Shown here: positions 1 through 30,719 of the stretch, in pieces
Numbering within the stretch: the stretch's first letter is position 1
Layout: each line of letters starts with the position of its first letter
IMG/VR virus record: IMGVR_UViG_3300017814_000143
DNA: 64,000 nucleotides
DNA from: an uncultured virus (IMG/VR IMGVR_UViG_3300017814_000143)
Taxonomy: Duplodnaviria; Heunggongvirae; Uroviricota; Caudoviricetes
Reading direction: 5' to 3' (one strand)
Made by a program: the position numbers and the translations under genes
The notes under the pieces: model-generated
What the model was told of the DNA's origin: nothing
Seen by the model: only the letters and a program-made list of their open reading frames with translations
Database searches by the model: none

Positions 1-1086
1 CTAACCTGAATACTTGCCATGGACACCGCACCATTCGCAGTCGTCGAGCTTCTCAACGGTCGTGTAGCTGACATCCATCGTCGTGATGTCGAACTCACCG
101 CGGCGGTTCACGTTTGCGGGCGCCGCGCAACCTGACAGCACTTTGACTGCCTCCATAGAGACCATGCTGGCGTTCAAGGCGCAGAGCGGACCCAGACTCC
201 CGACCTTCCTATTGGGGACCTGGAGCTTCTTTACCCTTGTGGGGTCGATCTCGTTCTCCCGTTCGAGCTGCCTCTCGAAGCACTTTACGCAGGCGGTCTC
301 GCCTGGGATGACCGTCTGGCCGATGAGGGAGAGGTGGAGATTGTATCCGCCACCGACTATGTGGGGAATCCCTCTTGGCATGCAGTACTCTCCGACCCAA
401 ATCGACGTCTGGTCGACCGTCGGTTTGTCCGCACAATCCACCACGAGGTCTATCCTCTGGTCGCCAAGTGCCTCAAGCGACTGTCCGTCGAGCTCGCTCT
501 GGACCCCTTTGATGTCGAGGTCCTCCCGATAGCGGCGGAGCTTTTCCGCGAGGGCGTCCACCTTCGGGCGTCCAACGTCGCCTGTCGTGTAGCCAAGCTG
601 CCTGTGGAGGTTCGAAAGCTCCACCTTGTCCGGATCCATCAAGATCAGTCTCCTCACCCCCGACTGCACGAGAGTACAGGCGACCCACGAGCCGACCGCC
701 CCAAGCCCAATGACGAGAACCCTAGAGCACCTGATCCGGCTCCACATCTCGACGAGGTGCTCGTGAGACGTCGAGAAGTCCTGGAGGAAGGAGACGACCC
801 TGCGGAAGTCCCCGTAGGAGTCAAGGTCCTCCCTCGGGCTAATGTTGTCTAGAATCCCGTGGCGGGAGAGGTGCGCGAGCAGCGACTCCACGGATGACAG
901 GGTGCAGCCATAGTCCTCGGCAATCTCCCGGGCCGTCCTCGAGCCGTCGAGTCCGTTCGCTATCTGGAGGATGGTGTTGTCCTGGGTTCTGAGACGCACC
1001 TGTTGCCTCGTGTTCGTCTTGAAGAACTCGACGATTCCGTCTCCGAGGGGAACGACCGATACGCTCGAACTGAGCTTTGGGTTCAC
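1..1086 (-). CDS. ThiF/E1-like adenylyltransferase with N-terminal winged-helix (RRE/PqqD-like) region
   Basis: GLGAVGS Rossmann motif, DPDKVELSNLHRQ, DCAD, Zn pairs CVKC/CEWC; ~100-aa N-terminal extension (LDGSRTAREIA); GTG at 1086 overlaps upstream TGA (GTGA). Confidence 0.88.
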   Translation of the reverse strand: MNPKLSSSVSVVPLGDGIVEFFKTNTRQQVRLRTQDNTILQIANGLDGSRTAREIAEDYGCTLSSVESLLAHLSRHGILDNISPREDLDSYGDFRRVVSFLQDFSTSHEHLVEMWSRIRCSRVLVIGLGAVGSWVACTLVQSGVRRLILMDPDKVELSNLHRQLGYTTGDVGRPKVDALAEKLRRYREDLDIKGVQSELDGQSLEALGDQRIDLVVDCADKPTVDQTSIWVGEYCMPRGIPHIVGGGYNLHLSLIGQTVIPGETACVKCFERQLERENEIDPTRVKKLQVPNRKVGSLGPLCALNASMVSMEAVKVLSGCAAPANVNRRGEFDITTMDVSYTTVEKLDDCEWCGVHGKYSG

Positions 1087-2198
1087 AACCTCGCCCCCGC
1101 CCCGCACACTGGACACTCCGGGTCCCTCTTGACGTCAAGGTAGCTCAACGTCATGCCATCGAAGAGCCATTCCCCTCGCGGCTTGTAGGATCCCCCCATG
1201 TCGACGATACCAGACAGGCACTTGACGATCTCGATGGCAGCAAAGGACGCCGAGAACAGCGACATGGAAGAGAGGCCACCGATTTCGAGTGCGCGATTCT
1301 CCACGGGGTGCGGGGAGGGCGTCCAGCCCTTCAGGCTCTCCTTGAAATACCTTGCGTAGCACTCGACGCAGGGGGTTACGTAGGGGATCACGAGCTCACC
1401 CGTACTGGCCAGGTGAGCGTCGAACCCGCCGGCAATGTAGTGGGGCTTGTCGTGCTTGACGCAGATGCGGGAAATCTTCGCGGAGGTGTAGCCGATGTAG
1501 GGCTCGTCCATAGTGTTCACGACAAAGTCGCATCCCTCGATGACCGGCTCGATGTCTTCCTCCGGCCTTACGGCCTCCGAGATGGCCTCGACACTGATCG
1601 CCGGGTCTATCTCACGGATCTTCCTGCGGAGTGACTCGACCTTGGGCAGCCCGACGTCCCACAGGTCGAAGAGGAGGTGCCGGCTTACGTCCGACCGCTC
1701 GACGACGTCGTAGTCGACGAGCACGAGGCTCCTCACCCCTGCCATGGCGAGCTCGAGCGCGATATCCCCTCCAACTGCCCCGCACCCGAAGATCACGACG
1801 CGAGACGAGGAGATTCTGCGCTGGGCCCGTAGGCCATCGGCCTCGTCCTCGAAGAACTCCGCAAAGTAGTTGATTTGCCGGGCATACCTCTCCGAGTCGT
1901 CCGGACAAAGGATGCTGATGTCCTGCACCTCGGTGATGATCCTGCTTGCTCGCAGCGACGTAAGAGTCTTGTCCGTTGACTCCGGACTAGCAGCGAATTC
2001 AGCGAGCATCAGCCTCCTGAGTTCGCCGGCAGTCCTCTTGCCATCGATGTGCTCGAGCAGGCTGACTGTCTCAGGGCTGATGCGGAATGTCCGCCTCTTG
2101 CGAGAGTTCATGTAGTAGGCAGTGATGTACGTATCATCCGTGAGGAAAAGGTCGACCGAATCCTTCACCTTGAACACCGTCGCTTCGTTAAGGCTCAT
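1083..2198 (-). CDS. Second ThiF/E1-like adenylyltransferase with RRE-like N-terminus
   Basis: GCGAVGG, DYDVVERSDVSRH, CVEC/CPVC; N-terminal IDGKRTAGEL and RYARQINYF segments; ATG 2198 after GGGAGG. Confidence 0.88.
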   Translation of the reverse strand: MSLNEATVFKVKDSVDLFLTDDTYITAYYMNSRKRRTFRISPETVSLLEHIDGKRTAGELRRLMLAEFAASPESTDKTLTSLRASRIITEVQDISILCPDDSERYARQINYFAEFFEDEADGLRAQRRISSSRVVIFGCGAVGGDIALELAMAGVRSLVLVDYDVVERSDVSRHLLFDLWDVGLPKVESLRRKIREIDPAISVEAISEAVRPEEDIEPVIEGCDFVVNTMDEPYIGYTSAKISRICVKHDKPHYIAGGFDAHLASTGELVIPYVTPCVECYARYFKESLKGWTPSPHPVENRALEIGGLSSMSLFSASFAAIEIVKCLSGIVDMGGSYKPRGEWLFDGMTLSYLDVKRDPECPVCGAGARL

Positions 2199-2670
2199 GA
2201 TGCCCTCCCATTGCTTCGCGGATAGAGGCGAACTCTCCCGAGGGACACACGACCAATGAGTCAATCAGGTTGATTTCCATGAGTTTCGCGGCAGACCCAA
2301 TCCTTCTTGTGAGTGCGACGTCCGGCTCGGTTATCTCGCAAATTCCACTTGGATGATTGTGGGCGACCACGATGTAGGACGCATTCGAGAGCAGGGCGAT
2401 TCGCATGACCTGTGCGACCGACGGAGATACCCTATCGACCGTGCCCATGGCTACGGTCGAGTAGTTTACGACCTTGTGGGTACTGTCGAGGCACAGGATT
2501 CCGACGACCTCGACGTTCATGTGACCTAACAAGGAGCAGAGAGCATCGCCAGCCTCCTCGACTCCATAAACATAGGGAGAGTCCACATCAACCTCAACCG
2601 TCCCGCACTCCACAAGTTCGATTTGTTTCACGGGAATGTTCATCCATGGCCAATCGTAAGCAAGCCGCAC
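2188..2670 (-). CDS. JAB/MPN domain protein, RadC-like (start may be ATG 2643)
   Basis: E...HNHPSG-x4-TEPD JAMM-like motif and LIDSLVV; overlaps downstream ThiF start. Confidence 0.85.
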   Translation of the reverse strand: MRLAYDWPWMNIPVKQIELVECGTVEVDVDSPYVYGVEEAGDALCSLLGHMNVEVVGILCLDSTHKVVNYSTVAMGTVDRVSPSVAQVMRIALLSNASYIVVAHNHPSGICEITEPDVALTRRIGSAAKLMEINLIDSLVVCPSGEFASIREAMGGHHEP

Positions 2671-2694
2671 ACCAAGGGGATGGGTGCGGCTTGC
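2660..2694. promoter_or_regulatory. Hairpin between peptide gene and JAB gene
   Basis: GCAAGCCGCAC (2660-2670) / GTGCGGCTTGC (2684-2694), perfect 11-bp inverted repeat, no clear U-tract. Confidence 0.55.
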
Positions 2695-2720
2695 GTTCTT
2701 AGATGCCTGTCAGCTCGCAG

Positions 2721-2930
2721 CTAGTACTGGATTACTCCGCCCTCCACGGCGAGGAACTTCCCCCACTCCTCCTCGGAGGCAACGTAACCGTCGCGTGTGC
2801 AGACCCTCGTGCAGCAGTCCGAACGCTGACCGGAGCAATCTCTGGTGTAGTCGGCGAAGAAGTCCTCCTCGGCAACCTCCTCGAAGACGAGATCTTTCAA
2901 AGCGTTGTCTGAGTTCTGATGCTTGTCCAT
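2721..2930 (-). CDS. Putative precursor peptide (69 aa: acidic leader, Cys-rich core, C-terminal GG-VIQY)
   Basis: ATG with AGGGGG RBS after an AT-rich stretch; first gene of JAB-ThiF-ThiF operon; core DCSGQRSDCCTRVCTRD. Confidence 0.75.
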   Translation of the reverse strand: MDKHQNSDNALKDLVFEEVAEEDFFADYTRDCSGQRSDCCTRVCTRDGYVASEEEWGKFLAVEGGVIQY

Positions 2931-3326
2931 GAGACCCCCTAGCTAAATAAAGGTGACGAGAATGCTGGTAGAAGCCACTGTTCCAAAAGGATAAAACTCT
3001 GTAAAGATAATACTCGTTTGATGGTGTTGGCGTCGGATGAAATTCGCCACCGTCTCGCCCCCCTCGATGAAGACGCTAAGGCGAAGAGCAAGCACCTCTT
3101 CCCGCTTCCCGGCGGCCCAGACCTTCATCCGAGGGGGCCGAGGCCGAGGGACTCATGCTCGCCCGCCTCTACCTCGTCGGCGCCTAGTTGTGGGGGAGGG
3201 TAAGACCCTGGGGCAAAGGACTAACCGCCCACGGTGGCAGCCAAGCCCCCCCGCGGCCGCTCCCTTGTCCATGTCTCCACGCCATGGCTTCACGCAAAAT
3301 ACCAACCAGGGTTTCTTGCCCCGGGT

Positions 3327-4676
3327 TCAACACTGCCCTTTCTCAAGACCGAGAAGTCGTTCTTTCGAATACTCTGCCTCGACCTCATGTGTCACGAGGA
3401 TAGAGAGAACGTCAATCGATCTCGTAAGAGCTACGTACAGCAAGTGCTTGGTCTTGTTGTCTTCCTTCTTGTCGCCAAAGAGATAGGGCGCAAGGTCTTG
3501 CGTAAGAATGAATAGGCACCTCTCGTGCTCCAGGCCCTTCACCGCCTCTATCGATCTGACGGCGATTCCTCTGTCGCTCGAGGGGCTTGTGGGCTTGAGC
3601 GCAGAAACCATCCTGGCGTATCTTCTCTTTTCATAGTCGAACAGTCCCTGATCTATCCAGCGTTTAATCGCTGCGCTTGGAGTGCCACCCTCAGCCACGA
3701 AAGCCATCATCTGTCTCGCTGCATGGTAGGTCATCCGATTGACCTCCAAATCGCATTGCGTTGCCCCGGGTTTATCCTTCGTTGCCGAAGAGACCTCATG
3801 GAATAGCGCCTCGAAACGCGAATCGTCTCCATGACTGGCATGGGTCTCGAAACGATCGTTCCTTCTGCTGATGTAGACGAGCCCATATTTCCGTTCCGCG
3901 ACAAGGGCGGCAACGTCTGTCTCGGATTCGAAGTACACGCTGATGCTACCAGGCCGATTGTGGGCGTCTGCAATTTGTTTTTCAGCGTCTTCGGCGAGAG
4001 CGTTTGAAAGCTGCAGGTGAATCTCGGGGCAGCGGTGGCACTCCTTGATAAATGTGACATCCCCGCATGCATCAATCAGCTCCCGGAAGCAGCCATGGCC
4101 CTTGACGTCCTGCTTGGGATCACCAAAGAGCTCGATGCCCACCCCCGCGCGACCCAAGGCCAGGAGTATGGCTTTCATGTCCTTGTCAATGTCCTGAGCC
4201 TCGTCGACAAAGATATTGTGGCAATACCCCGCAAACAGGGCGATAACCTTGGCCCTAAGTGCTCGCACGCGAGCACTCTCCTTGGTTTTCTTGTCCACCA
4301 CCCATCGCGCTCTCTGCGGTATCACGGTCTGGTGAAGCAAGGCTTGGCCTTCGAGCTCACGAATCTTCGCATTGCGGTAGACATTATCGTTCGGCAGACG
4401 GATAACAGAAATCGCCTGATAGCTCTTATTAAAGAGAAGGTGATAGTAGGGCTTGATTAGCTCAGAATACAGAAAGGAGTGTATCGTGCTGACTTTGATG
4501 TTATCGGACACCGACCCACTTAGCTCTACTAGCTTGGACCTGATGTTGTCGGCGGCCGCATTCGTGAACGCCACACAGTAGACCACCTTCCCGGCGGGAA
4601 TCTCGCAGCCGAGGATTCGCGAGGCCATACCCGTCGTCTTGCCCGCGCCGGCGCCCGCAACCTCAATCCTCATCAT
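3327..4676 (-). CDS. UvrD-like helicase, Gabija GajB-like
   Basis: AGAGAGKTT Walker A, AFTNAAA, STIHSF, VDEAQD, GDPKQ, KGLE, LYVALTRS; overlaps upstream OLD nuclease. Confidence 0.8.
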   Translation of the reverse strand: MMRIEVAGAGAGKTTGMASRILGCEIPAGKVVYCVAFTNAAADNIRSKLVELSGSVSDNIKVSTIHSFLYSELIKPYYHLLFNKSYQAISVIRLPNDNVYRNAKIRELEGQALLHQTVIPQRARWVVDKKTKESARVRALRAKVIALFAGYCHNIFVDEAQDIDKDMKAILLALGRAGVGIELFGDPKQDVKGHGCFRELIDACGDVTFIKECHRCPEIHLQLSNALAEDAEKQIADAHNRPGSISVYFESETDVAALVAERKYGLVYISRRNDRFETHASHGDDSRFEALFHEVSSATKDKPGATQCDLEVNRMTYHAARQMMAFVAEGGTPSAAIKRWIDQGLFDYEKRRYARMVSALKPTSPSSDRGIAVRSIEAVKGLEHERCLFILTQDLAPYLFGDKKEDNKTKHLLYVALTRSIDVLSILVTHEVEAEYSKERLLGLEKGQC

Positions 4677-6459
4677 GGACCGTCCCTTGGGTGCTGGACA
4701 CTGCTGTCCCGAGCCCCAAAAGAAAGTCAAGCACCTCCTGAATGTGCCGCGGCATAGTGAACCCCTGTAATTCGCCATCTATCAGGTCGTGGCAGATTTC
4801 GAGCATGACTCCTGCCTTGCCGCCTGAGCGCCAGTCGGCCTGCAGCTCATCCTTCGTCATGCCAGTCCACCCGTATTCGGCACCGTATCTTTCGAGGAGA
4901 AGTCGGAAATTGTCCCTGGTATCGACGATTTCGGGCTCCAACGTATAGCTGCCGGTCGTCCTAACGCAGACCTGTTCATCATCCAATGCGTCGTGCTCAT
5001 CTTTCGCCTTTGGCTGGTCATCGAAGTCCCTTACGATGCCAAGCTTGTTGCCGTTGCCCTCGTTGATCTTCTTCCATATCCTGATGATGTCTCTATAGCC
5101 CTTGTGGAATGACATCACCTTTATCTCGTCTAGGCCAGGCCGTGTCTGCAGATACGATTTAATCAGCAGCTCCTCCGTGATGCCCTCCACCAGAACGAGC
5201 CTGCGGGAGAAGAGCATCTTGAAGATGTCGGTGTTCGGGTTCTTCGCAAGATAGCACAGCTCGTCAGGTTCAAGCTCTCCCCTCAGGCTGAATGCTCTCC
5301 CACCATGGAGGATGATGACCCTCTCGAGACCAACCTTGTTCACGAACTCGGTATCATGTGTGGAGTAGATGAGCTGCGTCCGGCAGTCCTGGTTTCCGAA
5401 GGCCTTGAAGAGGCTGGCCATGAGCAGGACGTTGTTTATGCAGAGATGAGCCTCGGGTTCCTCGACAGCGACGACCCTAAGCGATATGTCATGAGTCGCA
5501 ATCAGATACGAGTTCAGCAAGACCGCCATGATGATCAGGTTTCGATGACCAAGACCCTGCAAGGCCATGCTCTCGTCGCCATAGCCGAGACGGATGCTGC
5601 CGAGGATGCTGCCCATGGCCGGCATATTGGGGAGGACGCTGATATCGTCGAAGAACTCTTTCGCCCGCGGCGCATCCGAGTAGTCCTGCCAGTTGATAAT
5701 CTCGTCGAGCTTGGCCGAAGTTCGTATTGTTTCGAGAAAGCTCCCGTATCCCTGCTCGATGTTCTTCAGCCCGACCGGATCGAGCTTTTCCTGGAGCAGG
5801 CCGATCAGAGCACGCGAGCCAAGCTTGTCGGAGCTTGCTGCGAAATTGTCCCGCTCGGCAGGAAGCATGGCATATTTGAATCGCGTCAGGGTGTCATACG
5901 ATACCCGATGCCCGTTCTCCGAGTCTGGTACCACGATCTCATGCCGGAACAGATCCATCGGGAGAAGGCTCATCTTGATTGCCTGGACCTCGTCTTCCGA
6001 GTCGAGCAGAATCTTTATGCATTCGAGAAGCTTCAACGGGTCCATGACGTGCCATCTATAGCATATCCGCCCCACAAGCCCGCCGTCGTCCTCTGCCGCG
6101 AGGATGTCCTTCAGGTCATACCCTTCCGTGTCGTCTCCTTGAAGGTCGACCGTCACCGAGACAGATGGGATGCATGATTGAAGGGTGCCGAGGCCAACGT
6201 CTCCACGGACGATCTCCTCTCGGTGCTCCTCGACGAAGGCGTAGTAGTCTTCTTTTGCCTCGTTGTTGATGTCAAACCATGAAAGGTTCTTGCTGCAGCT
6301 GCCCCCGCCGTCATCTAGTGACAATGGCAGCGAGATTGCCCTCAGGAAGTTGGACTTCCCGCTGTTGTTCTCGCCAACAAGCGCTACGAGGTTTCCAAGC
6401 GGAACGTCGACGCTCCTGAGATTGCGATAGTTCTTGATCCTGGCCCTGACGATTCTCAT
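4663..6459 (-). CDS. OLD-family ATP-dependent nuclease (ABC ATPase + TOPRIM), Gabija GajA-like
   Basis: IKNYRNL, GENNSGKS, EEPEAHL, STH, LVEGITE, RDFD. Confidence 0.85.
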   Translation of the reverse strand: MRIVRARIKNYRNLRSVDVPLGNLVALVGENNSGKSNFLRAISLPLSLDDGGGSCSKNLSWFDINNEAKEDYYAFVEEHREEIVRGDVGLGTLQSCIPSVSVTVDLQGDDTEGYDLKDILAAEDDGGLVGRICYRWHVMDPLKLLECIKILLDSEDEVQAIKMSLLPMDLFRHEIVVPDSENGHRVSYDTLTRFKYAMLPAERDNFAASSDKLGSRALIGLLQEKLDPVGLKNIEQGYGSFLETIRTSAKLDEIINWQDYSDAPRAKEFFDDISVLPNMPAMGSILGSIRLGYGDESMALQGLGHRNLIIMAVLLNSYLIATHDISLRVVAVEEPEAHLCINNVLLMASLFKAFGNQDCRTQLIYSTHDTEFVNKVGLERVIILHGGRAFSLRGELEPDELCYLAKNPNTDIFKMLFSRRLVLVEGITEELLIKSYLQTRPGLDEIKVMSFHKGYRDIIRIWKKINEGNGNKLGIVRDFDDQPKAKDEHDALDDEQVCVRTTGSYTLEPEIVDTRDNFRLLLERYGAEYGWTGMTKDELQADWRSGGKAGVMLEICHDLIDGELQGFTMPRHIQEVLDFLLGLGTAVSSTQGTVHDED

Positions 6460-6595
6460 GATTCGCAACCAATCATATTCGCGGCCTTCGTCTGCTCATT
6501 CATGTCATCGACGCGCGGCGTCATCCATCAGGACGCTAGCATCTCGCATGGGATGCTGAAACAAAGTTCGCAGATTGTTATGCCATCGGCGGGCC

Positions 6596-9500
6596 CTATC
6601 CAATCCTCAGCAGTCCCTGGAAGAAGGTGCCAGGGTAGATGAATGCCCTCTCCCTCTTCCTGTCATCATCGAACGTGACCGTGATTTGGCCGCTATCGAT
6701 GCTGTCTATGACGCCTCTTCCGAAGGCCCTGTGGAAGACGATGCCCCCGGCATCGAGCGCATCAAGCTGGTCCTGAGTAATGACGGGCTCCTCGTCGTTC
6801 TTGGCCGCCACGTCTTGCCTCTCCGGATAGCCGGAAAGCCACCAGGCATCCTTGCCATGCGTGACCTTTGTACCACCGGCCTTAAACTTGAAGCCGGCCC
6901 CATGATCGAAGAGGGGCTTGAGGCGATCCTCGATGGCCCTGCCGCCGATGACCCAGAGGTTACCCCTCTCGTCACGGTGGTCGACGAAACGGAAGCCGCC
7001 CTTCCTCAGGCTGGCAACGACCCAGTCGTTCCCGCCGTTCGTCACGACGGCGTCCACCGTCAGGGGCTTGCCGTCACTGGTGCTGTCGACGATACGCACG
7101 GCCCGCCGCGGGGCACGTATGCCCGCGTCCGCGTCTGTGACCGCGCCACCTCGTAGCGTCTCCTCCTGCTTCATCTGCAGGTAGTCGAACTCGCTCAGCG
7201 TGGTGTCGAACAGGCCGACCCTCTCGCCCTCGTGCTTGTTGATGCCGGTGTATTCCAGGCTCGAGTCCTCGTAGCGTCGGAACTTGTACACGGCGTCGTT
7301 CATGAGGCCGTCGTTGAACACGCCAAGCGACACCAGCAGGTCGAAGTCGGGCACGGTGAGGCCGGTGACCTTCTTGAACAGGCCGGGCTCCAACTGGGTG
7401 ATGACGTCCTTCAGGCACTGCTCGCGGAAGTCGGTGAGGTACATGAACACCGGGATTCGCGTCGCGAACTTGATGAGCTTCTCCTGCACCTGCTTGCGCT
7501 TGCCCCTGAGCTCCCTCTCCTCCTCCGAGAGCTCCCTGTGCTCCTCGGAGGTCATGTCCTGCCTCTCGCGCTTGGCCTTCTTGATCCCCTCGGACCTGTT
7601 GACGATGGTCTCGAGAATGTCACCGCCGAGGGCACGGAAGCCCTCGATGTTCATGAGCGCCCTCATGGCGTCCTCGTTGCCCATCAGGCGTCGTAGGGTG
7701 TCGTTGTCCACGTTCACGAGCAGGGCGCTCTCCCAGCGACGGGCGAGCAGCGTCGCCGAGGTGCCGGCCATCGCGATGTCGAGGATCTCGCTCGCACTCA
7801 CCTGGTGCATGGTGGAGCCGTCATAGGCGAGCACCGGGAGGAAGTCGATGAACTCGCCGACCTTCTGCTCTGGCCCCGTCCCATCGACCGAGAGGCGCAG
7901 GCTGTAGCTCGAGACCATACGGAGCGCACGATCGAGGGCGAAGTCGAAGACATAGCACTCGCGCTTCTCGATCTCCCTGCCGTGCTCGCCGTCGATGACC
8001 CAGGGACTCTGCACGCGAAAGGCCGCCTGGAAGTAGCTCTCGGGACTCCTCATGTTGGTGAGCATGAAGATGCCCGTCCACGGCCTCACGGTCACGCCGG
8101 TCGTAAGCTTGCCGCAGGTGAGAGTGATGGTCTTCGAGCGCAGGGGGTCCTGCATGGTCTCCTGCACCTTGTCCAGCGCCGCGGGCCCGATACCGGCGGC
8201 CGTGCCCGCACAGACATTCACCGTGTAGTCGTGGAAGAAGACGTTCTGCTTCTCCGCAAGGAGGTTGCGCATCGCGAAGCAAGAGTTAACCCGGGGCAGG
8301 TACCAGAGCGTGTGGTTGAGCACGTTGAGCAGGCGGGTGTCCGAGTAGGGCATGGGCGGCCTCTCTGCACCCAGCTTGAGGTCATCCACTGAGGAGGGCA
8401 GATAGGCTCCGCGGATGAGGTCGAGCCACTTCTGGACGTAGTCCTTGAGCACGAACTCTGCGTCGTCCCCCTCGTCCCTCGCCTCGAAGAACGCGTTGAG
8501 GTCGAACGAGTCAAACTCGCCGCCGAGCGCGATGTCGTGAATCTCCTTCGGCATCTGGTAGGTGAGCATGACCATGCGCGGTAGCGACTCATAGGGGTTG
8601 TCCGGTCCCTCCCAGTTCCTCTTCGCCCGCTGCTCGTCCGAGTAGGTCCAGTTGAAGACCTGGTCCTCGATGAACTCTCCGGAGTTGAGGGCGCGGAAGG
8701 GCGTGCCGGAGAGGAAGAGGTAGTACTTCGTCGCGATGGGCAGGTCGCCCTCGTCGACCTCGTTACCCGTGTTCGTACAGCCGACGCTGGTGTCGACTGT
8801 ATCCTCGGACACCGTGTTGAGCTCGTCCTCGTCCTCCTGCCGGAAGAGGGAGCGGGCGTTGTCGTTCCATGCACCGAAGTGGTACTCGTCGAACACCACG
8901 AGGTCCCAGTCCTCGAGGTGGACCCACTCGTTGCGGGGCTTGATCTGGCCCGTGCCACGGTCGGGCATCAGGAAGTCCTGGAACGACCCGAAGCAGACGA
9001 TGGGCCTGGCGGGGTCAGCCTCCTCGTACTGCATCCCGTCCCTCGTGACGAACTGCCAGCCCTCGAAGTCCACATGCTCCGTGAGGTCGTCGTACCAGGC
9101 GGTCCTCACGGCCGGCTTGAAGGTGAGCACGAGCACACGCCTGAAGCCCATGCGCTTCGCGAGCTCGTAGGTGGCGAACGTCTTGCCGAAGCGCATCTTC
9201 GCGTTCCAGAGGAACTTGGGCGCGAGATGTGCGCCCGTCTCCGCACGGCGATAGAACGCCATCGTCTTCTCAACGGCCTGCTCCTGCTCGGGGCGCATCT
9301 TGAAGTCGAGCGTGCGACGCTCCACGTTCTCGGTCCGGTCGCGGACGGCAAGCCAAGCCGCGCGGACATCGTCAACGGTGCAGCGGAACCACTCCGTCTT
9401 CTTGCCACTTGCATCACGCAGACGGTAGAACCCGTTCTTCTCGAGGTTATCGTGCACCTCATGATCCATGAAAGAGGATCCGTCCGAACGCACCGCGCTC

Positions 9501-12444: not shown

Positions 12445-12478
12445 GTTAGTGGACTGTTAGTGGACTACCTTGTGGACT
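12445..12478 (+). repeat. Candidate integrase arm-binding direct repeats
   Basis: GTTAGTGGACT twice in tandem plus TTGTGGACT, between att and integrase. Confidence 0.65.
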
Positions 12479-12510
12479 GTACGAATTCCTATGTGCGAAA
12501 AAGAGGAGCG

Positions 12511-13689
12511 ATGGAATACACGGCTGGGAAGGTGCGCCACGTCCGGGACGACATCTATCAAGCGCGTTACACATGGTACGAGGAGAGGCACGGGAAGAAG
12601 GTTGCCCACCAGGTCGCCCGCAACTTTCGGGCCGGATCGAAGCGAGAGGCCGAGCAGCGCAGGGCAGCCATCCACTCTGAGCTAGAGCGCAAGGCCGAGA
12701 TTGACCGCCTTATTCCCGCAGCAAAGCTTCCTGCCCAGACTGGCATCGCGGACTACCTTTATTCGTATGCTCGGATGCGAGAGGGCTCGGGCGCGGTGGA
12801 GAAGACTACGCTCGCGAACTACCGCTCGAACACCAAGCACATCTTGCGTTACATCCACGATGTGCCCATCTCCGGTATCACTGGCGAAATGGTGCTACGC
12901 ATGGACGAGATGCTTCTCGCAGACGGCCTCGTGCCAGACACGGTATCGGCGGCACATCGCTTCCTCAAGCAGGTTCTCGACCACGCCGAGGACGTCGGCG
13001 ACATAGAGAAGAACCCCATCACCCGCGCCGTGAAGCCACCCAAGCGCCAGCGGCGCGAGCCCAACGGCCTCGACGACGAGAGCCGCAGACACCTGATGAC
13101 CCTCGTGGACGAGATGGACGACACACCTCTCACCCTCGCCATAAGGCTCGGCCTCACGGCGGGCCTGCGTAACGAGGAGGCGGTCGGCCTCAAGTGGCAG
13201 CACATCGACTTCGCCGCGGGCATCATGCACATACGAAACTGCATAACCCTCGCCGACGGAAAGGTTGTTGAGAAGGGCACCAAGACCGCAGCCGGGTGGC
13301 GCGACATCCCGTTCGACCCCGACCTCGCCTGTAGGCTCAAGCTGCGCATGGCTGACATGGGCATAAAGGCCACGAAGCCCCTGCGCGACCTCTACGTTCT
13401 CGGCGAGGCAGACGGCTCCTTCTATCACCCCACCTTCCTCTCACGCGACTTCTCGGCGCTGGTTCGACAGTACGGTCTCATGGGCACCCAGGGCAAGAAG
13501 CCGACGTTCTATAGTCTTCGCCACACCTTCGCCACCGTGGCCCTGCGCAGCGGCATCGACGTCAAGACCGTGTCGAGCCTCATGGGCCACAGCTCGGTGG
13601 CCGAGACTCTGAACACCTACGCGACGACAGACCCCGCTGCCAGGGCGGCGGCGGGGTCTGTGATAGCGCGGGCCATGGCCGAGCGTTAG
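12511..13689 (+). CDS. int: Tyrosine integrase
   Basis: GLRNEEAVGLKW, SLRHTFAT, LMGHSS, TLNTY; AGAGGAG RBS. Confidence 0.93.
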   Translation: MEYTAGKVRHVRDDIYQARYTWYEERHGKKVAHQVARNFRAGSKREAEQRRAAIHSELERKAEIDRLIPAAKLPAQTGIADYLYSYARMREGSGAVEKTTLANYRSNTKHILRYIHDVPISGITGEMVLRMDEMLLADGLVPDTVSAAHRFLKQVLDHAEDVGDIEKNPITRAVKPPKRQRREPNGLDDESRRHLMTLVDEMDDTPLTLAIRLGLTAGLRNEEAVGLKWQHIDFAAGIMHIRNCITLADGKVVEKGTKTAAGWRDIPFDPDLACRLKLRMADMGIKATKPLRDLYVLGEADGSFYHPTFLSRDFSALVRQYGLMGTQGKKPTFYSLRHTFATVALRSGIDVKTVSSLMGHSSVAETLNTYATTDPAARAAAGSVIARAMAER

Positions 13690-15465: not shown

Positions 15466-15681
15466 ATGGAATATTTTACTACAGTTAACCGCCTTCGCCT
15501 CAACGCGATGCTCCAGGATTTCGGACTTGACAAACCCCTGGACGAGCATGACCTCGCGCTCCAGCTCCTCAATACTGAGCTGCGCCTCAAGCGCAACGAG
15601 GCGGACATCGCCGCGCTCATCGACCTGCTCCAGGGGCACGGCATGTACCTGGAGGACTTCAACTTTGAAGGCGGGTGCTAG
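15466..15681 (+). CDS. Hypothetical protein
   Basis: GGAG RBS; abuts vapE-like gene. Confidence 0.5.
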   Translation: MEYFTTVNRLRLNAMLQDFGLDKPLDEHDLALQLLNTELRLKRNEADIAALIDLLQGHGMYLEDFNFEGGC

Positions 15682-15683
15682 CC

Positions 15684-16937
15684 ATGGCCTTCGCTACTAA
15701 CGACAGCAACATCATCAAGGTGGGCGCGGTACCTCCCGGGACCGCCCCCACGCCGCCCGAGCGCAGGGCACCGACCGTCAACGAGGTTGTCCGCGCCCTG
15801 GAGCAGATGGGCCTCGCCCTCGGCTACGACAAGCTCGCCAACGAACCCGCCAAGACCGGCCCCCTGCCCTGGGACGAGGTGACGGGTACCAGAGCGTGGG
15901 CAGAGCTCGACGACGCCGAGCTCTATGCCCTCCTTCAGGGCAGGCTCGGCCTCCGGAGCGAGAAGGCCCTCGCCTGCGCGACCACCATCTATGCCCACCG
16001 CCACGCCTACGACCCGCTCACTGCCATGCTCGACGGCATCGAGTGGGACGGCGCCGAGCGCGCGGGCACGCTTCTCACCAGATATCTCGGCGTCATGCCC
16101 ACACCCTACACCGTCGCGGCAGAGCAGGTCTTTCTCTGCGGTGGCGTCGAGCGTGCCTATCGCCCAGGCTGCAAGTACGACTACGTCTTGACGCTCGTCG
16201 GCCCCGGCGGCATCGGGAAATCGACCTTCGGACGCCGCCTCGCCCTGCGCGGCAAGTACTTCTGCGACTCAGTATACGACCTGGGAAACGTCAAGGCAAC
16301 CGGCGAGGTGCTTCGCGGGAAGTGGGTCGTCGAGCTTGCCGAGCTGACCGGAATCAGCGGCCGCTCCCTCGAGGCCGTGAAGGCCGGGGTGACCCGTCAG
16401 GCCGACACTTTCCGCATCGCCTACGGCAGGCGCTCCGCTGACTTCCAGCGCCGCGCCGTCTTCATCGCGACGACGAACACCGTGGGCTTCATCGCCGAAA
16501 AATCGTCCGGTGCCCGGCGCTTCCTGCCCGTGCTCTGCGGCGCGGTCCCGCCGACGGGCTCCGTCTTCTCGCGCGAGTTCGCACGCGACGCAGCTCAGGC
16601 CTGGGCGGAGGTGCGGACGTGGCGCGAGACCGGCGACCCCCGCTTCTCGCTCGCACTCGCCCCCGACATGGAAGCCGAGGCCACCCGGCAGCGCGAGGGC
16701 TTCCTCGAGGACGACCCGCGCGTCGAGGCGGTGAACGAATATCTGTGCTCAAACCGCGACCACCCGGTCTGCACGCGCGAGCTTGCGGACAGGGCACTCC
16801 ACGTCGAGCCCACGGCGAAGCTCTACAAGGAACTCTCGGCCATCCTCACCGACCAATGCCCCGGCTGGAGGTACGACGGCAAACGCTGCTGCGGTCTCTA
16901 CAATAAGCAGCGCTGCTGGGTCTACCGCCCCGAGTAG
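15684..16937 (+). CDS. VapE-family P-loop NTPase (replication helicase-like)
   Basis: WDGAER, PGCKYDY, GPGGIGKST, WVVELAEL, FIATTN, GARRF. Confidence 0.85.
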   Translation: MAFATNDSNIIKVGAVPPGTAPTPPERRAPTVNEVVRALEQMGLALGYDKLANEPAKTGPLPWDEVTGTRAWAELDDAELYALLQGRLGLRSEKALACATTIYAHRHAYDPLTAMLDGIEWDGAERAGTLLTRYLGVMPTPYTVAAEQVFLCGGVERAYRPGCKYDYVLTLVGPGGIGKSTFGRRLALRGKYFCDSVYDLGNVKATGEVLRGKWVVELAELTGISGRSLEAVKAGVTRQADTFRIAYGRRSADFQRRAVFIATTNTVGFIAEKSSGARRFLPVLCGAVPPTGSVFSREFARDAAQAWAEVRTWRETGDPRFSLALAPDMEAEATRQREGFLEDDPRVEAVNEYLCSNRDHPVCTRELADRALHVEPTAKLYKELSAILTDQCPGWRYDGKRCCGLYNKQRCWVYRPE

Positions 16938-17203: not shown

Positions 17204-17548
17204 ATGGACAGACGCGACAAGCGCATAGACATAAGGGTCACCGAGAGGGAGCGCCGATCGATCGCGTCGCGCGCCCGCAGGGCCGGCGAGCCCGTCTCTG
17301 CCTACGTCAGGAGGGCCGCCCTCCGCCGTGACGCCGACCCCACGGCGGCGGTCGAGGTCGATGGCAGGGAGCTTGCGAGCGCCCACGCAGACCTCAAGAG
17401 ATGCGGAGGCCTCCTGAACCAATACATGCATGCGGTCAACCGCTACGGCCTGACCTCATTCGATGCCCAGCCGATCGAGTCGGCGGCCGCAGAGGTCGCC
17501 CGCGCGGCGGCGGACGTCGCGGCGGCAATCAAGATCACGCGAAGCTAG
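17204..17548 (+). CDS. mobC: MobC-like ribbon-helix-helix relaxosome protein
   Basis: IDIRVTERE..SAYVRRAAL; LKRCGGLLNQ. Confidence 0.8.
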   Translation: MDRRDKRIDIRVTERERRSIASRARRAGEPVSAYVRRAALRRDADPTAAVEVDGRELASAHADLKRCGGLLNQYMHAVNRYGLTSFDAQPIESAAAEVARAAADVAAAIKITRS

Positions 17549-17559
17549 GAGGAGACAAC

Positions 17560-19452
17560 ATGAGCATACTTACGAAATCCGCGGTCGCAGCGGCCGTTCT
17601 CGACATCTTCGCAGCGCCCATCCTCGCGCGGCCCCTGGACGCGATGGTCGCAGGGCGGATGCCAATCCCGCTCCTTGACGGGCAGGCGTTCGATCACGCC
17701 ACGATTCCCCTGTGGTGGGCGTCCCTGTCGTTCATGGACCACCCGCTCGGCACGCTCGCGTCGTTCGCCGCGTGCCTGCTCGCGGCGCTGCTGTTCTTCG
17801 CGCAGCAGGACGCGAGCAGCCGGTCCGATGACGGCGGCGTGCTGGGGAGCGCCCTCGTCAAGACGGGCGGCGAGGCCGTGAGGGGCTCCGACACGTGGGA
17901 TGGGAAGAGCGAGCCAGGGACGCGAGGCTACGTCTACGGCTTCTCCCGTGGCCGATACCTCTACGAGGCGGGCACGCCCCACGTGTTCGTGTGCGGACAG
18001 ACGGGATCGGGGAAGACGCGCTTCCAGAACATCCCCACGCTCGACCTGCTCACCTTCGGCGACGGCGGCTGGAACGTCGTGGTGTCCGACGTGAAGGGCG
18101 AGCTCGTCGAGCTGTGCGGGGACGGCATCGAGGCCCGTGGCTACGCCGTCCTGCTCCTCGACGTGCAGCGGCCCGCGCGCGGGCACCGCTACAACCCCAT
18201 CAAGCTCGTGTGCGACTACGCTGACGGCGACGACATGCAGGGGGCCGAGCAGGCGGCGGAGGACGTGGCGGCGGCGCTCGTGCCCGAGGAGCGCGAGGGT
18301 CAGTCCACCCACTGGGTCACATCGGCCCGGGGCATCCTCGCGGCCACCATCCTCTACGTCGCCACCTCGGACGAGTGCCCGGTCGGGGCAAGGCACATGG
18401 CGACGGTGTGCCGCATCATCAACGAGGGTACCGAGGGAGGGGGCGCCGACCCCGCGGCCCCGCTCAAGGCGCTCTTCCGCTCCCTTCCCCCGGGGCACCC
18501 GGCACGGGGCTTCGCCTCGCAGCTCCTGAGCAGCGGAGGCAACGAGCTGCGCTCCATCCTCAGCACGCTCAAGGTTCACCTGCGCATCTTCTCGTCGGAG
18601 TCGGTCGCGTGGCTCACGTCGGCCTCCGACATAGACCCGAGGCGGGTACTCACCGAGAAGACGGCACTCTTCCTGCACGTCATGGACGAGGGGAGCCCCT
18701 ACAACTCCTTGTTCGCCGTGTTCTTCGACCAGCTGTACAAGGCCGTCCACCTCGTGGCGGACTCGAACGGCGGCAGGCTCCCCCGGAGGCTCGCGATACT
18801 AGGGGATGAGTGGGGCAACCTCCCCACCGTGAGGTGCCTCCCATCGCTCCTTTCGCTCGGGCGCGGATACGGCGTGTCGTGGTTCGGAAGCTGCCAGAAC
18901 ATCTCGCAGCTCAACAAGTACGGCGAGCGCGACGGGCGCAGGAAGGTGCTCGCCAACTGCGGCGTGAAGGTGGCACTCAAGCTCGGGGAGGCCGAGGACA
19001 GGCAGTACTTCACCGAGCTCGTGGGCAAGACCACGAGACACACCCAGGGCACGAGCAGCAGCAGGGGCACATCGTCCTCGAGTTCCCTGAGCTACAGCGA
19101 GCATGCCGATGACGTGATCCACGCATGGGAGTGGGTCGGGATGTCACCCGAGCGGGACGGGGCCATCGTGGTCAAGCAGGCCGAGAACGGCGTGCCCAGG
19201 CGCCACGCGGGCACCTTCCGGGCACCCCTCACCGACTGCACGAACACGCCCACCAAGGCCCACTTCGGTCTTGGCACACGCGAGCACGAGGCCGCAGCGC
19301 GCCTCGCCTACCAGCTTCGCCTCGACGCGCGGGCGGCTGGGCGAGAAATGTCGGTGGAGACCTGGTGTCCCGAGTGGCCCGAGGCCGGGCGCGACGAGGA
19401 CGGCATCGACGACGAGTGGAGCGCGTTCGACAGAGGGGAGGACCAGCCATGA
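17560..19452 (+). CDS. Type IV coupling protein VirD4/TraG
   Basis: N-terminal TM segments, GQTGSGKT, SDVKGEL, YNPI, GDEWGNL. Confidence 0.9.
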   Translation: MSILTKSAVAAAVLDIFAAPILARPLDAMVAGRMPIPLLDGQAFDHATIPLWWASLSFMDHPLGTLASFAACLLAALLFFAQQDASSRSDDGGVLGSALVKTGGEAVRGSDTWDGKSEPGTRGYVYGFSRGRYLYEAGTPHVFVCGQTGSGKTRFQNIPTLDLLTFGDGGWNVVVSDVKGELVELCGDGIEARGYAVLLLDVQRPARGHRYNPIKLVCDYADGDDMQGAEQAAEDVAAALVPEEREGQSTHWVTSARGILAATILYVATSDECPVGARHMATVCRIINEGTEGGGADPAAPLKALFRSLPPGHPARGFASQLLSSGGNELRSILSTLKVHLRIFSSESVAWLTSASDIDPRRVLTEKTALFLHVMDEGSPYNSLFAVFFDQLYKAVHLVADSNGGRLPRRLAILGDEWGNLPTVRCLPSLLSLGRGYGVSWFGSCQNISQLNKYGERDGRRKVLANCGVKVALKLGEAEDRQYFTELVGKTTRHTQGTSSSRGTSSSSSLSYSEHADDVIHAWEWVGMSPERDGAIVVKQAENGVPRRHAGTFRAPLTDCTNTPTKAHFGLGTREHEAAARLAYQLRLDARAAGREMSVETWCPEWPEAGRDEDGIDDEWSAFDRGEDQP

Positions 19453-23287: not shown

Positions 23288-26200
23288 CTAAATCCCCAAG
23301 CTATGCTTCACATACGTCTCCGCATCGAAGCTGTCATCGAGGACGAACTTGCGGAGCATGTCGTTGGTACTGAGATTTGCCTGGAAGGCGCTGATCTCCC
23401 TACCGGCATGACTGCTGAAGAAAGCTCTCGCCCGTTCCTTGTCCACCGTCTTGAGCAGGCGATTGAACTGCCCGTACTCGTCGAGGGTTGCCCCGGTCAC
23501 GCCTTTGGCAATGAGGTTAACTAGGAGACCCTTGTCGACGCCCGTGGCGTCGACGATGCTGTCAACGCGCTCGCTGCTCGCGTGTGCCATGTACTTCGTG
23601 ATGTAGTCGCGGAACGTCTTGCTCGGATCCACAGTCACGACGCCGCGTTCCACGTCGTGGAGGAACAGCTCGGCATATTCCTGCTCCTCCGCCGTGAGGA
23701 ACTTGTAGCTCGTGTGCAGGTCGACCAATGCCTCGTCTATGGCCTTCTTGTCCTCGTCGCTCATCTGTTTCAGACCAAGCCACTTCTTGAAGCGCGACTG
23801 CATGTAGTCCGCATCGATGCGGTCCGTATTGATCTGGGTGAGATAGGGGTCGATGTCGTAGGGGACATCCTCGTTATTCCCCTCGCCATTGCCGTGCGTG
23901 CCGAAGAGCTCCTTGTAGCGCAGGACCAGCACCAGATAGGTCTGCTCGTCCAGCGTGCTGGACATCATGCCTTCGCCGCCAGGATATTCGGCTACGTCCC
24001 AGGCGAATCCCTGTATCTTGGCGGCGGCAAAGACCTCGTTGTAGTCGTGGAAGAGCTTCGCGAACTTTGCCTTTGCCTCGTCACCGTCAGGTAGGTGCGT
24101 GAAGTCGGGCTCGCCACCGCGGGAGAAGACGATGCGAATCTGCTCGTAGATGGCGTTCATGGCCTTGATGTTGTCGGGTAGCTTGTCCACGAACAGGCCT
24201 CGTGGCCTGTCTCCGGAGAAGAGCCTGAACGCATTGTCGATGTTCTTCTCCATCGTATGGCACTTGCGATAGTACCGGATGTTACCGAAGGGCTTCTGCG
24301 GACCGAACAGTCGGTTGGTCCTAGAGAAGGACTGGATGATCGCCTCGTTCTTCTTGACCCTGTCGAAGTAGAGCGTGTTCACCCACTTGGAGTCGAAGCC
24401 GGTGAGCATCTGGTCCACCACTATGAGCAGGTCTATCTCCTGGTCTGGCGTCTTATGCACCTGGGCGTACTGGTCTTTGTGGGCAAGCCTCAGCGCGACG
24501 TCACGCTTGAAGGCTTGGTAGGTGGACAGCGTGAAGTTCTGGTTATAGCGGGCGTCGTAGTCCTTAAGCACCTCGACCAGGCCGTCCTCCTTGAAGATGT
24601 CCCCGCCACCGTTGTCGAGGTTCGGGTCCACCTGTACGGTCACCTTGAGGCCGCATCCGCGAGACTTGAAAATGCGGTAGTACTCGATGGCCTCGCTGAT
24701 GTGGTTCGCGCTCAGCATGCCATGGAACAAACCACCTGGATGCGATATCGGCCAATTCTCGAGGATGTCATCGACCACGGTCTCCCTATGCTCGGGACGC
24801 TCGTACTGGCTTGGGGGCACGTAGTGCTCGATACCATACTCGACGGTGCCGTCGGATAGATCCTTGTCGGCCATGTCCAGGTCATACATGAAGTGGTTGT
24901 ATCTCTTGAGCACCGAAGGGTCTGCCTGTATCTCCGTGATTTCGGTCGAATGCACCTGATCGAACGCGACCGCCCGTCTCAGATCGTCGTCCTTGTAGGT
25001 CAGGCACATCACAGGATCGAAGCCGAGCACGTTCTTGTCGCGGATGCCGTCGGCGATCGTGTAGTGGTGCAACTCGTTGCCGAACACGTCCGAGGTTGTG
25101 CAGTCCTGCCTGTTGTTCTCGTCGAAGATGGGCGTCCCCGTGAAGCCGAAGAACATCGCCGTGGGGAAGGTGTGCTTGATGTTGTACATCATCTTGCCGA
25201 AGGTGCTCCTGTGACACTCGTCGACGATGAAGACGACGCGCTTCTTCCGGATGGCGGCGATGTCCGCGGCGTTCTCGGCGGCCTCCTGGACAAGACCCAT
25301 CTTCTCGATGGTCGTCACGATGAGCCTGTCGTTCGCCACGTCGCTCCTGAGCTTCGACACGAGGACGGCGGAGTCCTGGGTCTGCTGCACGGCAGAGTCC
25401 CTCTGCTCGTCGGTGAGGTCCGAGCCGGCGAAGTTCCGGTAGGCCCTGAGGGACTGGGTGTCGAGCTCCCTACGGTCAACCAGGAAGACGACCTTGTCGG
25501 CATGGTTGGACTCGGCCACGAGCTGTGCGCTCTTGAAGCTGGTCATGGTCTTGCCCGAGCCCGTGGTGTGCCAGACGTAGCCGCCCCTGCTGTCGTTCAC
25601 GGTCCAGTTGGATTTGGCCACGGCATCCGAGATGCTCTCGGCCGCATAGAGCTGGTAGGATCGCATCACCTTGAGGGTGTCGTCCGATGCGTCGGGCACC
25701 GTGTAGAAGCCGATGAGCTGATGGGCCCGTGGGATGTTGAGAAGCGATTTGGTGAACCGCTTCCAGTCGTTGATGGGCTCGTTGTCACGGTCCGCCCAAT
25801 GAAAGAAGTAGTCGGAGCCGGGGTCGAGCCCCTCCTCCGAACCAGGGTTGGCGTAGTAGACGGCCTCGTTGGGCTCCATGGCCACGAAGACCTGCACGAG
25901 GGAGAAGATTCCCGTGAACGCGGCATCGTGATAGTATCTCTGAATCTGGTACTCGGCTCGGCTCACTGATACGCCGGAATTCTTGAGCTCGATGTGGATG
26001 ACCGGCATGCCGTTGATAAGCAGCTCCAGGTCGCCTCGCATGTCGCAGCGCCACTTATCCCTCGCCTTGCACTGCGGCTGCTGCGCGATCTGATAGGTTG
26101 ATTCCCCGCCGGCAATCTCCTTGCGATCGTAGATCTTCAGCGAGACCGTACCGCCAAAGTGCAGCTTGTCATCCTCGTTGTCCCGCTTGATGGCGACACT

Positions 26201-26464: not shown

Positions 26465-26478
26465 CGCTCATGCGCTCC

Positions 26479-30452: not shown

Positions 30453-30719
30453 TATCCGCCCCTTGTCGCGTGAGTCGTCGATCATACGATCGCAGTCCAT
30501 TCTACCGTTGACCCCGGACACATATGGACGGATTCGTCCGGTGAGGATCGTTGCCCTAGTTCTCCCGGAGCCAAGGTCAGCAAACGGCCTTCTCGCACGC
30601 ATGGGCATGCGAAATGGAGCCCTCTTGTCACTCCCGTCGATATCGTCAGACCCCAGACATCTGTGCCGCGAATCTTCCACCTCAGGATTCATGTCCGCCG
30701 TACGGCGTATGCTCATGGC

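Follow-up and report, generated by a model that had tools for sequence, protein, structure and literature searches.

A new member of the GxxQY type of two-ThiF peptide operons, with a predicted UvrA-like ATPase partner

Bases 1-2930 of the 64,000-nucleotide stretch analysed here (the window; uncultured virus record IMGVR_UViG_3300017814_000143, Caudoviricetes) hold four open reading frames (ORFs) in one direction, all on the minus strand, which encode a small peptide, a JAB-domain protein, and two ThiF-like enzymes, ThiF-A and ThiF-B. Together with a fifth, apparently UvrA-like gene that leaves the window at its edge, these form the cassette with which this report is concerned:

2721..2930, minus strand: precursor peptide gene, 69 amino acids (aa), ending ...WGKFLAVEGGVIQY; an ORF with homologues beside ThiF pairs
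2660..2694, minus strand: hairpin of 14 bp, in the 77-nt spacer between the precursor and JAB genes
2188..2643, minus strand: RadC-like JAB/JAMM protein, 151 aa from ATG 2643 (alternative start GTG 2670); PF04002, E 9.8e-28
1083..2198, minus strand: ThiF-A, 371 aa; PF00899, E 2.3e-41
1..1086, minus strand: ThiF-B, 361 aa from GTG 1086, stop at 3-1; PF00899, E 1.5e-46
1..74, minus strand: 5′ end of a putative UvrA-like ATP-binding cassette (ABC) ATPase; candidate starts ATG 74, GTG 26, and ATG 20

The peptide, JAB, ThiF-A, and ThiF-B genes are real. A Shine-Dalgarno sequence (AGGGGG, 2940-2935) lies five bases 5′ of the precursor ATG, and translational coupling is visible in the sequence: the ATG of ThiF-A lies within the end of the JAB gene (an 11-nt overlap), and the start of ThiF-B shares the letters GTGA with the stop of ThiF-A. 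The initial annotation of this DNA, made from the letters and their ORFs, was right in reporting (i) one coupled operon of four genes, (ii) no E2, YcaO, or radical S-adenosylmethionine (rSAM) gene, none of which occurs in the cassette, and (iii) an operon that may continue to the left of base 1. At that end, an open-ended ORF (3..98, minus strand) overlaps the end of ThiF-B, reads ...GAVSMASIQV, and runs off the window. Its start matches that of the gene after ThiF-B in Olsenella absiana (783 aa, beginning MTAIGVASMGSIQVRGAREHNL), the closest relative, in which ThiF-A and ThiF-B are both 76% identical to those of the window. From its first codons and its relatives, we infer that the fifth gene of the window encodes a UvrA-like ATPase. 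Neither NCBIfam nor PADLOC gave a specific family for the peptide, the JAB protein, ThiF-A, or ThiF-B; the matches obtained represent generic ThiF, MoeB, and Cap2-domain similarity only, far below the curated cut-offs.

The tail of the peptide leads to a published family. In sequence networks of ThiF-like adenylyltransferases, the text of Wang et al. (ACS Omega 2024; PMC11256085) sets out a "GxxQY type" of 131 hits and wide phylum distribution, described there as the sole clade with two ThiF-like enzymes and, among ThiF-dependent peptide clusters, as the largest clade still uncharacterised. Table S1 of that paper gives homologous precursors (for example, ...CSGSRSDCCTRVCTR...GVIQY), and its Arcobacter and Campylobacter rows (2 of 18 VIQY rows) share CSGSRSDCCTR[VT]CTR...W[DE]NYLEV..GVIQY with our 27-sequence alignment of precursor peptides (A2). 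By its tail, its two ThiFs, and its homologous precursor, the window cassette is thus assigned by sequence to the GxxQY type. The initial annotation had called the system undescribed and matched it to no named class, a view that can no longer be held; no match to an already characterised cluster emerged, the GxxQY type being listed as uncharacterised. "GxxQY" occurs in the literature only in PMC11256085 and its preprint. The terms UvrA, excinuclease, and RadC have no occurrence in the main text or either supplement of that paper (with Figure 2B outside the search), and a term search of two 2025 reviews (PMC12596934, PMC12250964) returned no mention of RadC, JAB, or UvrA. Literature searches for the precursor motifs, or for ThiF-like plus UvrA, found nothing relevant; UvrA with ThiF and RadC yielded one genome paper only, and E1-like with JAB and UvrA only noise from UVRAG and autophagy. 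Overall, the cassette is a new member of a published, uncharacterised family whose DNA-ATPase partner is unreported in the literature searched. A hairpin after the precursor gene and a frequent defence-system neighbourhood are equally unmentioned in the searched parts of PMC11256085 and in that literature, and the optional JAB gene is likewise added here.

Recurrence of the cassette is far beyond chance. A ThiF-A profile scan with one genome per species gave 25 loci, from Bacillota, Actinomycetota, Fusobacteriota, Bacteroidota, Spirochaetota, and Pseudomonadota, and all 25 show one gene order for the peptide, ThiF-A, and ThiF-B. Two plasmids (Acinetobacter johnsonii pXBB1-8 and one Moraxella osloensis plasmid) and three viral contigs, each with a JAB-less four-gene form, bring the set to 30 loci; of these, all 30 have both ThiFs, 29 have the peptide, 29 the UvrA-like gene, and 18 the JAB gene, the single peptide-less row (L030) being cut by a contig end. 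The ThiF pair accordingly has a peptide homologue upstream of it in 25/25 genome loci and in 4/5 plasmid or viral loci. Two loci look like decaying cassettes: in one (L011), the UvrA-like gene, ThiF-A, and JAB are all fragmented, and in the other (L013), the UvrA-like gene is absent and the peptide is without the nearly invariant Thr that follows the last Cys. The genes flanking the cassette form no conserved family, a quick ThiF-B tree mixes phyla freely, and of 201 genomes drawn from the class to which the nearest relative belongs, 1 has ThiF-B. The cassette is a self-contained, horizontally mobile unit, with the peptide, two ThiFs, and the UvrA-like protein as its core and JAB as an accessory. 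Searches of bases 1-3000 against plasmids (as DNA) and of ThiF-B against phage records (as protein) returned no match.

The UvrA-like gene directly follows ThiF-B in 24/25 genome loci (by tblastn) and in 29/30 loci overall. The proteins of relatives, on which its properties were tested, are 719-826 aa long and score 502-722 bits on the UvrA model NF001503 (672 for O. absiana; cut-off 1147). They match model positions 3-117 and 265-931 only, with 118-264 missing, hence the loss of the UvrB-binding domain; the DNA-binding insertion domain is kept (PF17755, E 1e-12 for O. absiana). Among 28 full-length proteins, Walker A occurs twice in 28/28, LSGGE twice in 27/28, and four CxxC motifs in 28/28. 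The solved relatives are UvrA (2r6f, E 2.8e-156), UvrA2 (2vf7, 1e-142), and Ecm16 (7sh1, 2.3e-107). By sequence, the cassette protein would thus be a UvrA paralogue without the UvrB-binding domain and with both ATPase sites kept. A separate, full-length canonical UvrA (1483-1597 bits) was present in 3/3 host genomes checked (of 25), and no orphan cassette-type UvrA-like gene was found in 200 other genomes of the class, a search of low power given that the cassette itself occurs in 1/201. Since the UvrA-like gene is conserved like the enzymes and is translationally coupled to them, we consider it part of the logic of the system. As a separate observation, two genomes hold a further UvrA paralogue besides the canonical and cassette copies (G002:C21:57292-59787 and G003:C27:15275-17728; frames of 832-872 aa that match model positions 4-127 and 242/252-941).

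Both ThiFs are of the MccB/PaaA type, with intact nucleotide-binding, Mg-Asp, and zinc motifs. Against the PDB, the best match of the ThiF-A profile was PaaA (5ff5, 1.1e-30), with MccB next, and that of ThiF-B was MccB (7e-43, residues 57-357), with PaaA matched over residues 40-341. An AlphaFold2 (AF2) model of ThiF-A (mean per-residue confidence, pLDDT, 82.6; overall fold score, pTM, 0.80; pLDDT 86-95 for the N-terminal ~90 residues) retrieved MccB in all of its top 24 Foldseek matches, over 369-384 aligned columns. By VIA-align, MccB was placed onto model residues 7-367 (chain 1-348, Z 26-27) and PaaA, with its chain from residue 11, onto 12-359 (Z 24.4), each including the N-terminal domain; MoeB and ThiF structures cover model residues 95-366 only, such that the N-domain is matched by MccB and PaaA alone. 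ThiF-A is thus predicted to carry an N-terminal peptide-binding domain like the RiPP recognition element (RRE) of enzymes that modify RiPPs (peptides made on the ribosome and modified after translation). A corresponding domain in ThiF-B is suggested by its full-length homology to ThiF-A (28% identity, N-domain included) and by its MccB/PaaA profile matches. With Pfam, the N-terminal domain gave a weak PqqD match (E 0.11), PF05402 being annotated on 2/120 homologues among the matches listed. The proposal in the initial annotation of RRE-bearing ThiFs that act on a ribosomal peptide therefore stands, MccB and PaaA being the closest solved relatives over the N-domain as well.

Invariant in 17 ThiF-A sequences are GxGxxG, the Arg and Lys of the nucleotide site, the Asp of NTMDEP, and two CxxC motifs; in 20 ThiF-B sequences, these are GxGxxG, SNLHRQ, a Lys, the Asp of CAD, and again two CxxC motifs. 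We take these to serve in nucleotide, Mg, and Zn binding, partly from what is known of MoeB and MccB; the text of PMC11256085 also gives motif roles for ThiF-like enzymes. Because the nucleotide-site, Mg-Asp, and CxxC motifs are invariant in each family, ThiF-A and ThiF-B are probably both active enzymes.

A profile search of 1.84 billion representatives with the peptide returned 50 homologues, of which 46 have a complete C-terminus; the other four, truncated or frameshifted, were set aside from the C-terminus counts. The precursor homologues are Cys-rich and 59-75 aa long, and the best-conserved part of the peptide is its tail, G-x-x-Q-[Y/F], present in 46/46 (45 QY, 1 QF). Preceding the tail are NAG in 19/46, x-G-G in 19/46, and other residues in 8/46, while the S.CCT..C block is found in 39/46. 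The 27-sequence alignment has F16, C32, S37, C39, C40, T41, C44, W56, L60, G65, Q68, and Y69 as invariant residues; in it, the Asp of RSDCC is replaced by Gly in L018 and L025 and by Glu in L024. The initial annotation had singled out the end of the window peptide, EGGVIQY, as a di-Gly masked by four residues. This Gly-Gly is literally present in the window peptide, yet it is no feature of the family, and of the two patterns it pointed to, the Cys pattern is the conserved one. Its remark that the peptide does not look like a beta-grasp protein agrees with AF2, in which the peptide alone has two short helices and no confident fold (pLDDT 62, pTM 0.33), with no beta-grasp predicted in this low-confidence model. 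One locus (L018) has two tandem precursor genes (638-1158) with different, more Cys-rich middles, which have their N-terminal segment and the end G-I-[IV]-Q-Y in common; L025 has a precursor with a variant core related to that of L018. Such tandem precursors are often seen in RiPP clusters. Thiopeptide and bacteriocin precursor families (0.78) are among the ESM Atlas neighbours of the peptide that score below 0.9, which we treat as a lead only.

The JAB protein aligns with a RadC homologue (PDB 2qlc, E 1.6e-8), HNHPSG motif included. It is encoded in 18/30 loci (18/25 genome loci), the other 12 keeping everything else, and on the quick ThiF-B tree, all 19 JAB-bearing rows and one loss (L003) form a single clade with 99% support. 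JAB is therefore an accessory, dispensable member of one lineage. In the 27-sequence alignment, x-G-G, mostly as E-G-G, precedes the tail in 15/18 JAB-containing loci; this association follows one tree clade, so it is no independent evidence.

The window hairpin (2694..2660) has a minimum free energy of -35.1 kcal/mol (z -2.93), and a hairpin within 75 nt after the precursor stop reaches z <= -2.4 in 23/29 related loci, in many with a T-run after it (by mononucleotide shuffles, with L028 and L029 identical). We regard it as a candidate attenuator or transcript-end element, which would keep precursor RNA above enzyme RNA, much as a terminator between mccA and mccB keeps the microcin C precursor in excess. 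No sigma-70 consensus was found in window 2600-3400, where this consensus is ill-suited to high-GC, actinobacterial-type sequence; judged by eye, many loci have sigma-70-like promoters directly upstream of the cassette. SOS regulation was considered and dropped: for 29 precursor genes, 300 nt of upstream sequence (for L001, 135 nt) contained no perfect SOS box (GAAC-N4-GTTC), and one-mismatch matches appear in three loci at unrelated positions. Runs labelled as metatranscriptomes gave one short contig each, at 2705-2923 (X17, precursor gene only), 244-507 (X15), and 735-977 (X16). These contigs over the precursor gene and ThiF-B, which carry no strand, end, or level information, are a weak hint of transcription, as RNA libraries can hold DNA.

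We thus read the cassette as a GxxQY-type, ThiF-dependent RiPP-type operon in which activation of the C-terminal Tyr yields a DNA-directed modified peptide, from which the UvrA-like protein protects the producer; we rate the chances of this reading as even. Here, the peptide would be a consumed substrate, its N-terminal LxFEE segment docking on the RRE domain, by analogy, with binding between peptide and ThiF expected from homology. At least one ThiF would adenylate the C-terminal carboxylate of Tyr69, proposed as the adenylation site since it is the sole family-invariant carboxylate. The acyl-adenylate (acyl-AMP) would then be captured within the peptide by a nucleophile such as one of the four invariant Cys residues, Ser37, Thr41, or an amide nitrogen of the backbone or of Gln68, to give a macrocycle or an imide, as with MccB, EnfB, GrcB, and IndF. 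A second ATP-dependent step, of the kind that MccB performs unaided, may fall to the second ThiF, or this enzyme may serve as heterodimer partner of the first; JAB, where present, could be a lineage-specific maturation peptidase. The product would act on DNA, an expectation drawn from the co-inheritance and translational coupling of the UvrA2/Ecm16-like ATPase, which might keep the producer's own DNA clear of the product. Of the earlier interpretation, the RiPP-type view is retained here; its Gly-Gly/JAB mechanism and its claim of an unnamed family are not.

According to the texts of PMC12150305 and PMC11256085, every documented ThiF-like RiPP chemistry has carboxylate adenylation as its first step, followed for microcin C, pantocin, GrcB, EnfB, and IndF by capture of the adenylate by a nucleophile. 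The build of MccB (microcin C7; 3H5A, 3H9G, 6OM4), a peptide clamp with a ThiF domain, is that of ThiF-A, matched structurally over model residues 7-367. However, MccA has 7 aa and ends in an Asn with an essential side chain, whereas the cassette peptide has 59-75 aa, is Cys-rich, ends in Gln-Tyr, and is paired with two enzymes; moreover, the mcc genes include export and immunity functions, of which the cassette has none. PaaA (pantocin A; 5FF5), GrcB, EnfB, and IndF are likewise RRE-ThiF enzymes that adenylate a peptide carboxylate, with intramolecular capture to an imide, thiolactone, or indolylamide, but each of these works as a single ThiF on a short core, and the texts searched name no UvrA-like or JAB partner for them. 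With UvrA2 (2VF7), Ecm16 (7SH1), and DrrC, the cassette ATPase shares its tandem ABC ATPase, zinc modules, DNA-binding insertion domain, and lack of a UvrB-binding domain; unlike them, it is linked to a ribosomal peptide pathway, a link for which we found no report in the literature. The genes for Ecm16 and DrrC belong to clusters that make DNA-binding compounds. According to PMC10413001, uvrA-like genes are used as markers of DNA-intercalator clusters. By analogy with these, the UvrA-like protein may protect producer DNA from a DNA-directed product.

Several points weigh against this interpretation. The whole peptide, beyond any core, is strongly conserved across phyla, unlike most antimicrobial RiPPs. 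The cassette UvrA is nearer to genuine UvrA (1e-156) than to Ecm16 (1e-107), and a resistance role is therefore an analogy and no membership. Next to the cassette, there is no conserved exporter, immunity pump, or regulator, an unusual lack if the product were a secreted antibiotic, and the neighbouring defence genes fit an immune role at least as well. Product mass, the nucleophile, and the division of labour between the two ThiFs cannot be read from sequence.

These neighbouring genes bear on a serious alternative, namely an intracellular conflict or anti-phage module whose modified peptide and DNA-scanning, UvrA-like ATPase would work jointly within the cell; there, the peptide might be a DNA-directed poison or mark against invading DNA, or might abort infection, instead of being an exported antibiotic. 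In the window, the cassette abuts a complete Gabija system directly upstream (3327-6468, minus strand; the genes overlap by ~115 nt as called), beyond which 6596-30716 has the look of a mobile element with a defence island on it:

3327-4778, minus strand: GajB, 483-aa ORF; PDLC00120, E 3e-124
4663-6468, minus strand: GajA, 601 aa; PDLC00078, E 1e-202
within 6596-30716: T5orf172-domain protein, 1050 aa
9681-11207: Eco57I-type restriction-modification (R-M) methylase
12460-13689: tyrosine integrase
15675-16937: VapE-like protein
17401-19452: type IV secretion system (T4SS) coupling protein
within 6596-30716: SEC-C-motif protein
23288-30716: type I R-M hsdR/S/M

The methylase, integrase, coupling protein, and type I R-M genes beside Gabija speak for a defence role, as does plasmid pXBB1-8, on which the cassette directly follows BREX pglZ-brxL. 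When the 123 flanking ORFs with 110 aa or more (of 193 with 70 aa or more) were scanned, a PADLOC match (E <= 1e-15) lay within 6 kb of the cassette in 7/25 genome loci, the neighbours being AbiH, PDC-S01 (twice), PDC-S15, PDC-M26A, IetS, and RADAR RdrB. In line with such a module are also the sporadic, mobile distribution, the lack of a conserved exporter, the lack of a linked regulator with sigma-70-like promoters upstream by eye, and a UvrA-like gene that is as conserved as the enzymes and was not found alone in the 200 other genomes of the class. Conversely, 18/25 genome loci are without a recognised defence neighbour, mobile elements also carry bacteriocins, and no sensor or effector logic is readable from the genes. 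Nor does any cassette protein match a system model in PADLOC-DB v2.0: the peptide and JAB hit 0 families, the ThiFs match Cap2 "E1-E2" models in the adenylation part only, and the UvrA-like protein matches only models of generic ABC similarity (mad3 and mad8). Occurrence of the cassette on three viral contigs, and in no phage record, says nothing either way. An anti-phage role, itself compatible with a DNA-directed modified peptide, is thus possible, and we hold it to be clearly less probable than the producer-protection reading.

Two side observations concern these surroundings. The contigs of an independent DNA run from wastewater (X5) break at ~3049-3240, a short way upstream of the precursor gene, with several loose ends and a contig word-depth of ~20 on the cassette side vs ~9 on the Gabija side; the cassette may thus have more than one upstream context. 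At the other end, one X5 contig reaches ~1270 nt past base 1. In a Cetobacterium metagenome-assembled genome (L023:601-5654), an 877-aa protein with an adenosine-deaminase domain (RdrB models, E 4e-30) and an 806-aa protein, together a RADAR-like pair, lie directly upstream of the cassette.

A more specific and more doubtful proposal is that the cassette constitutes a chemical immune system: a constitutive, intracellular, macrocyclic Cys/Tyr/Trp peptide would bind or damage DNA, with the UvrA-like protein sparing the host chromosome such that phage and plasmid DNA would be hit preferentially. If true, a ribosomal peptide would here do what anthracyclines do in the "chemical defence" of Streptomyces, and a two-ThiF pathway would have a first job.

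We consider it unlikely that the cassette makes a small molecule or cofactor, with the Q-Y end turned into a metabolite, the remainder of the peptide a scaffold, and JAB or a host peptidase freeing the product. Peptide precursors of small metabolites of which few residues are used, such as PqqA, MftA (which ends GVY), and PaaP, do exist; the conservation of the whole peptide across phyla, with Q68-Y69 invariant, is typical of single-product scaffolds, and PaaA is the best PDB sequence match of ThiF-A. Against these, the cassette has no oxidoreductase, rSAM, or other tailoring enzyme, a presence in 1/201 related genomes is unexpected for a cofactor, and both the invariant Cys/Ser/Thr block and the UvrA-like partner would be left unexplained.

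Least probable is the mechanism of the initial annotation, in which JAB removes VIQY and ThiF adenylates the exposed Gly for cyclisation, sulfur transfer, or ligation in the manner of ubiquitin-like (Ubl) proteins: JAB proteases do cleave after Gly-Gly in QbsD/QbsE-type pathways, and the EGG-VIQY of the window peptide and the x-G-G of most JAB loci (15/18) fit such a cleavage, but the tail to be removed is invariant (46/46), Gly-Gly is confined to 19/46 peptides, JAB is absent from 12/30 loci, the JAB/Gly-Gly link amounts to one clade, and the cassette has no E2 or sulfurtransferase and no predicted beta-grasp. Systems that do pair an E1-like adenylation domain with a JAB-family protein (CBASS Cap2-Cap3, Bil, QbsC/D/E, PRTRC) differ from the cassette, which is without an E2, a beta-grasp or GG-ended modifier, or a cyclase, and the JAB of which is RadC-type and dispensable. 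Cap2 models show weak, domain-level similarity to the cassette ThiFs (E 1e-20 to 1e-9), and the PRTRC_ThiF model gives 18.8 bits against a cut-off of 144.75. Neither a beta-grasp Gly-Gly carrier nor an E2, sulfurtransferase, or cyclase partner of a Ubl or sulfur-carrier pathway was found in the cassette, and the suggested Ubl-like conjugation is not supported.

Returning to the producer-protection reading, the constant partner of the two ThiFs is a UvrA-like DNA ATPase rather than an exporter, so that DNA is the suggested site of action, and it is the invariant C-terminal Gln-Tyr, rather than Gly-Gly, that marks the residues of interest. As the GxxQY type is the largest uncharacterised clade and the sole two-enzyme clade, its chemistry is likely new. 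Placement in defence islands is frequent enough to justify considering a phage role beside an antibacterial one.

A last observation concerns another part of the window. The nearest virus record (G001), of 28.9 kb and with a CheckV completeness of 88%, has 29% of the window's sampled words in common and no match to bases 1-7000; a prophage-like stretch must therefore lie elsewhere in the window, outside bases 1-7000.

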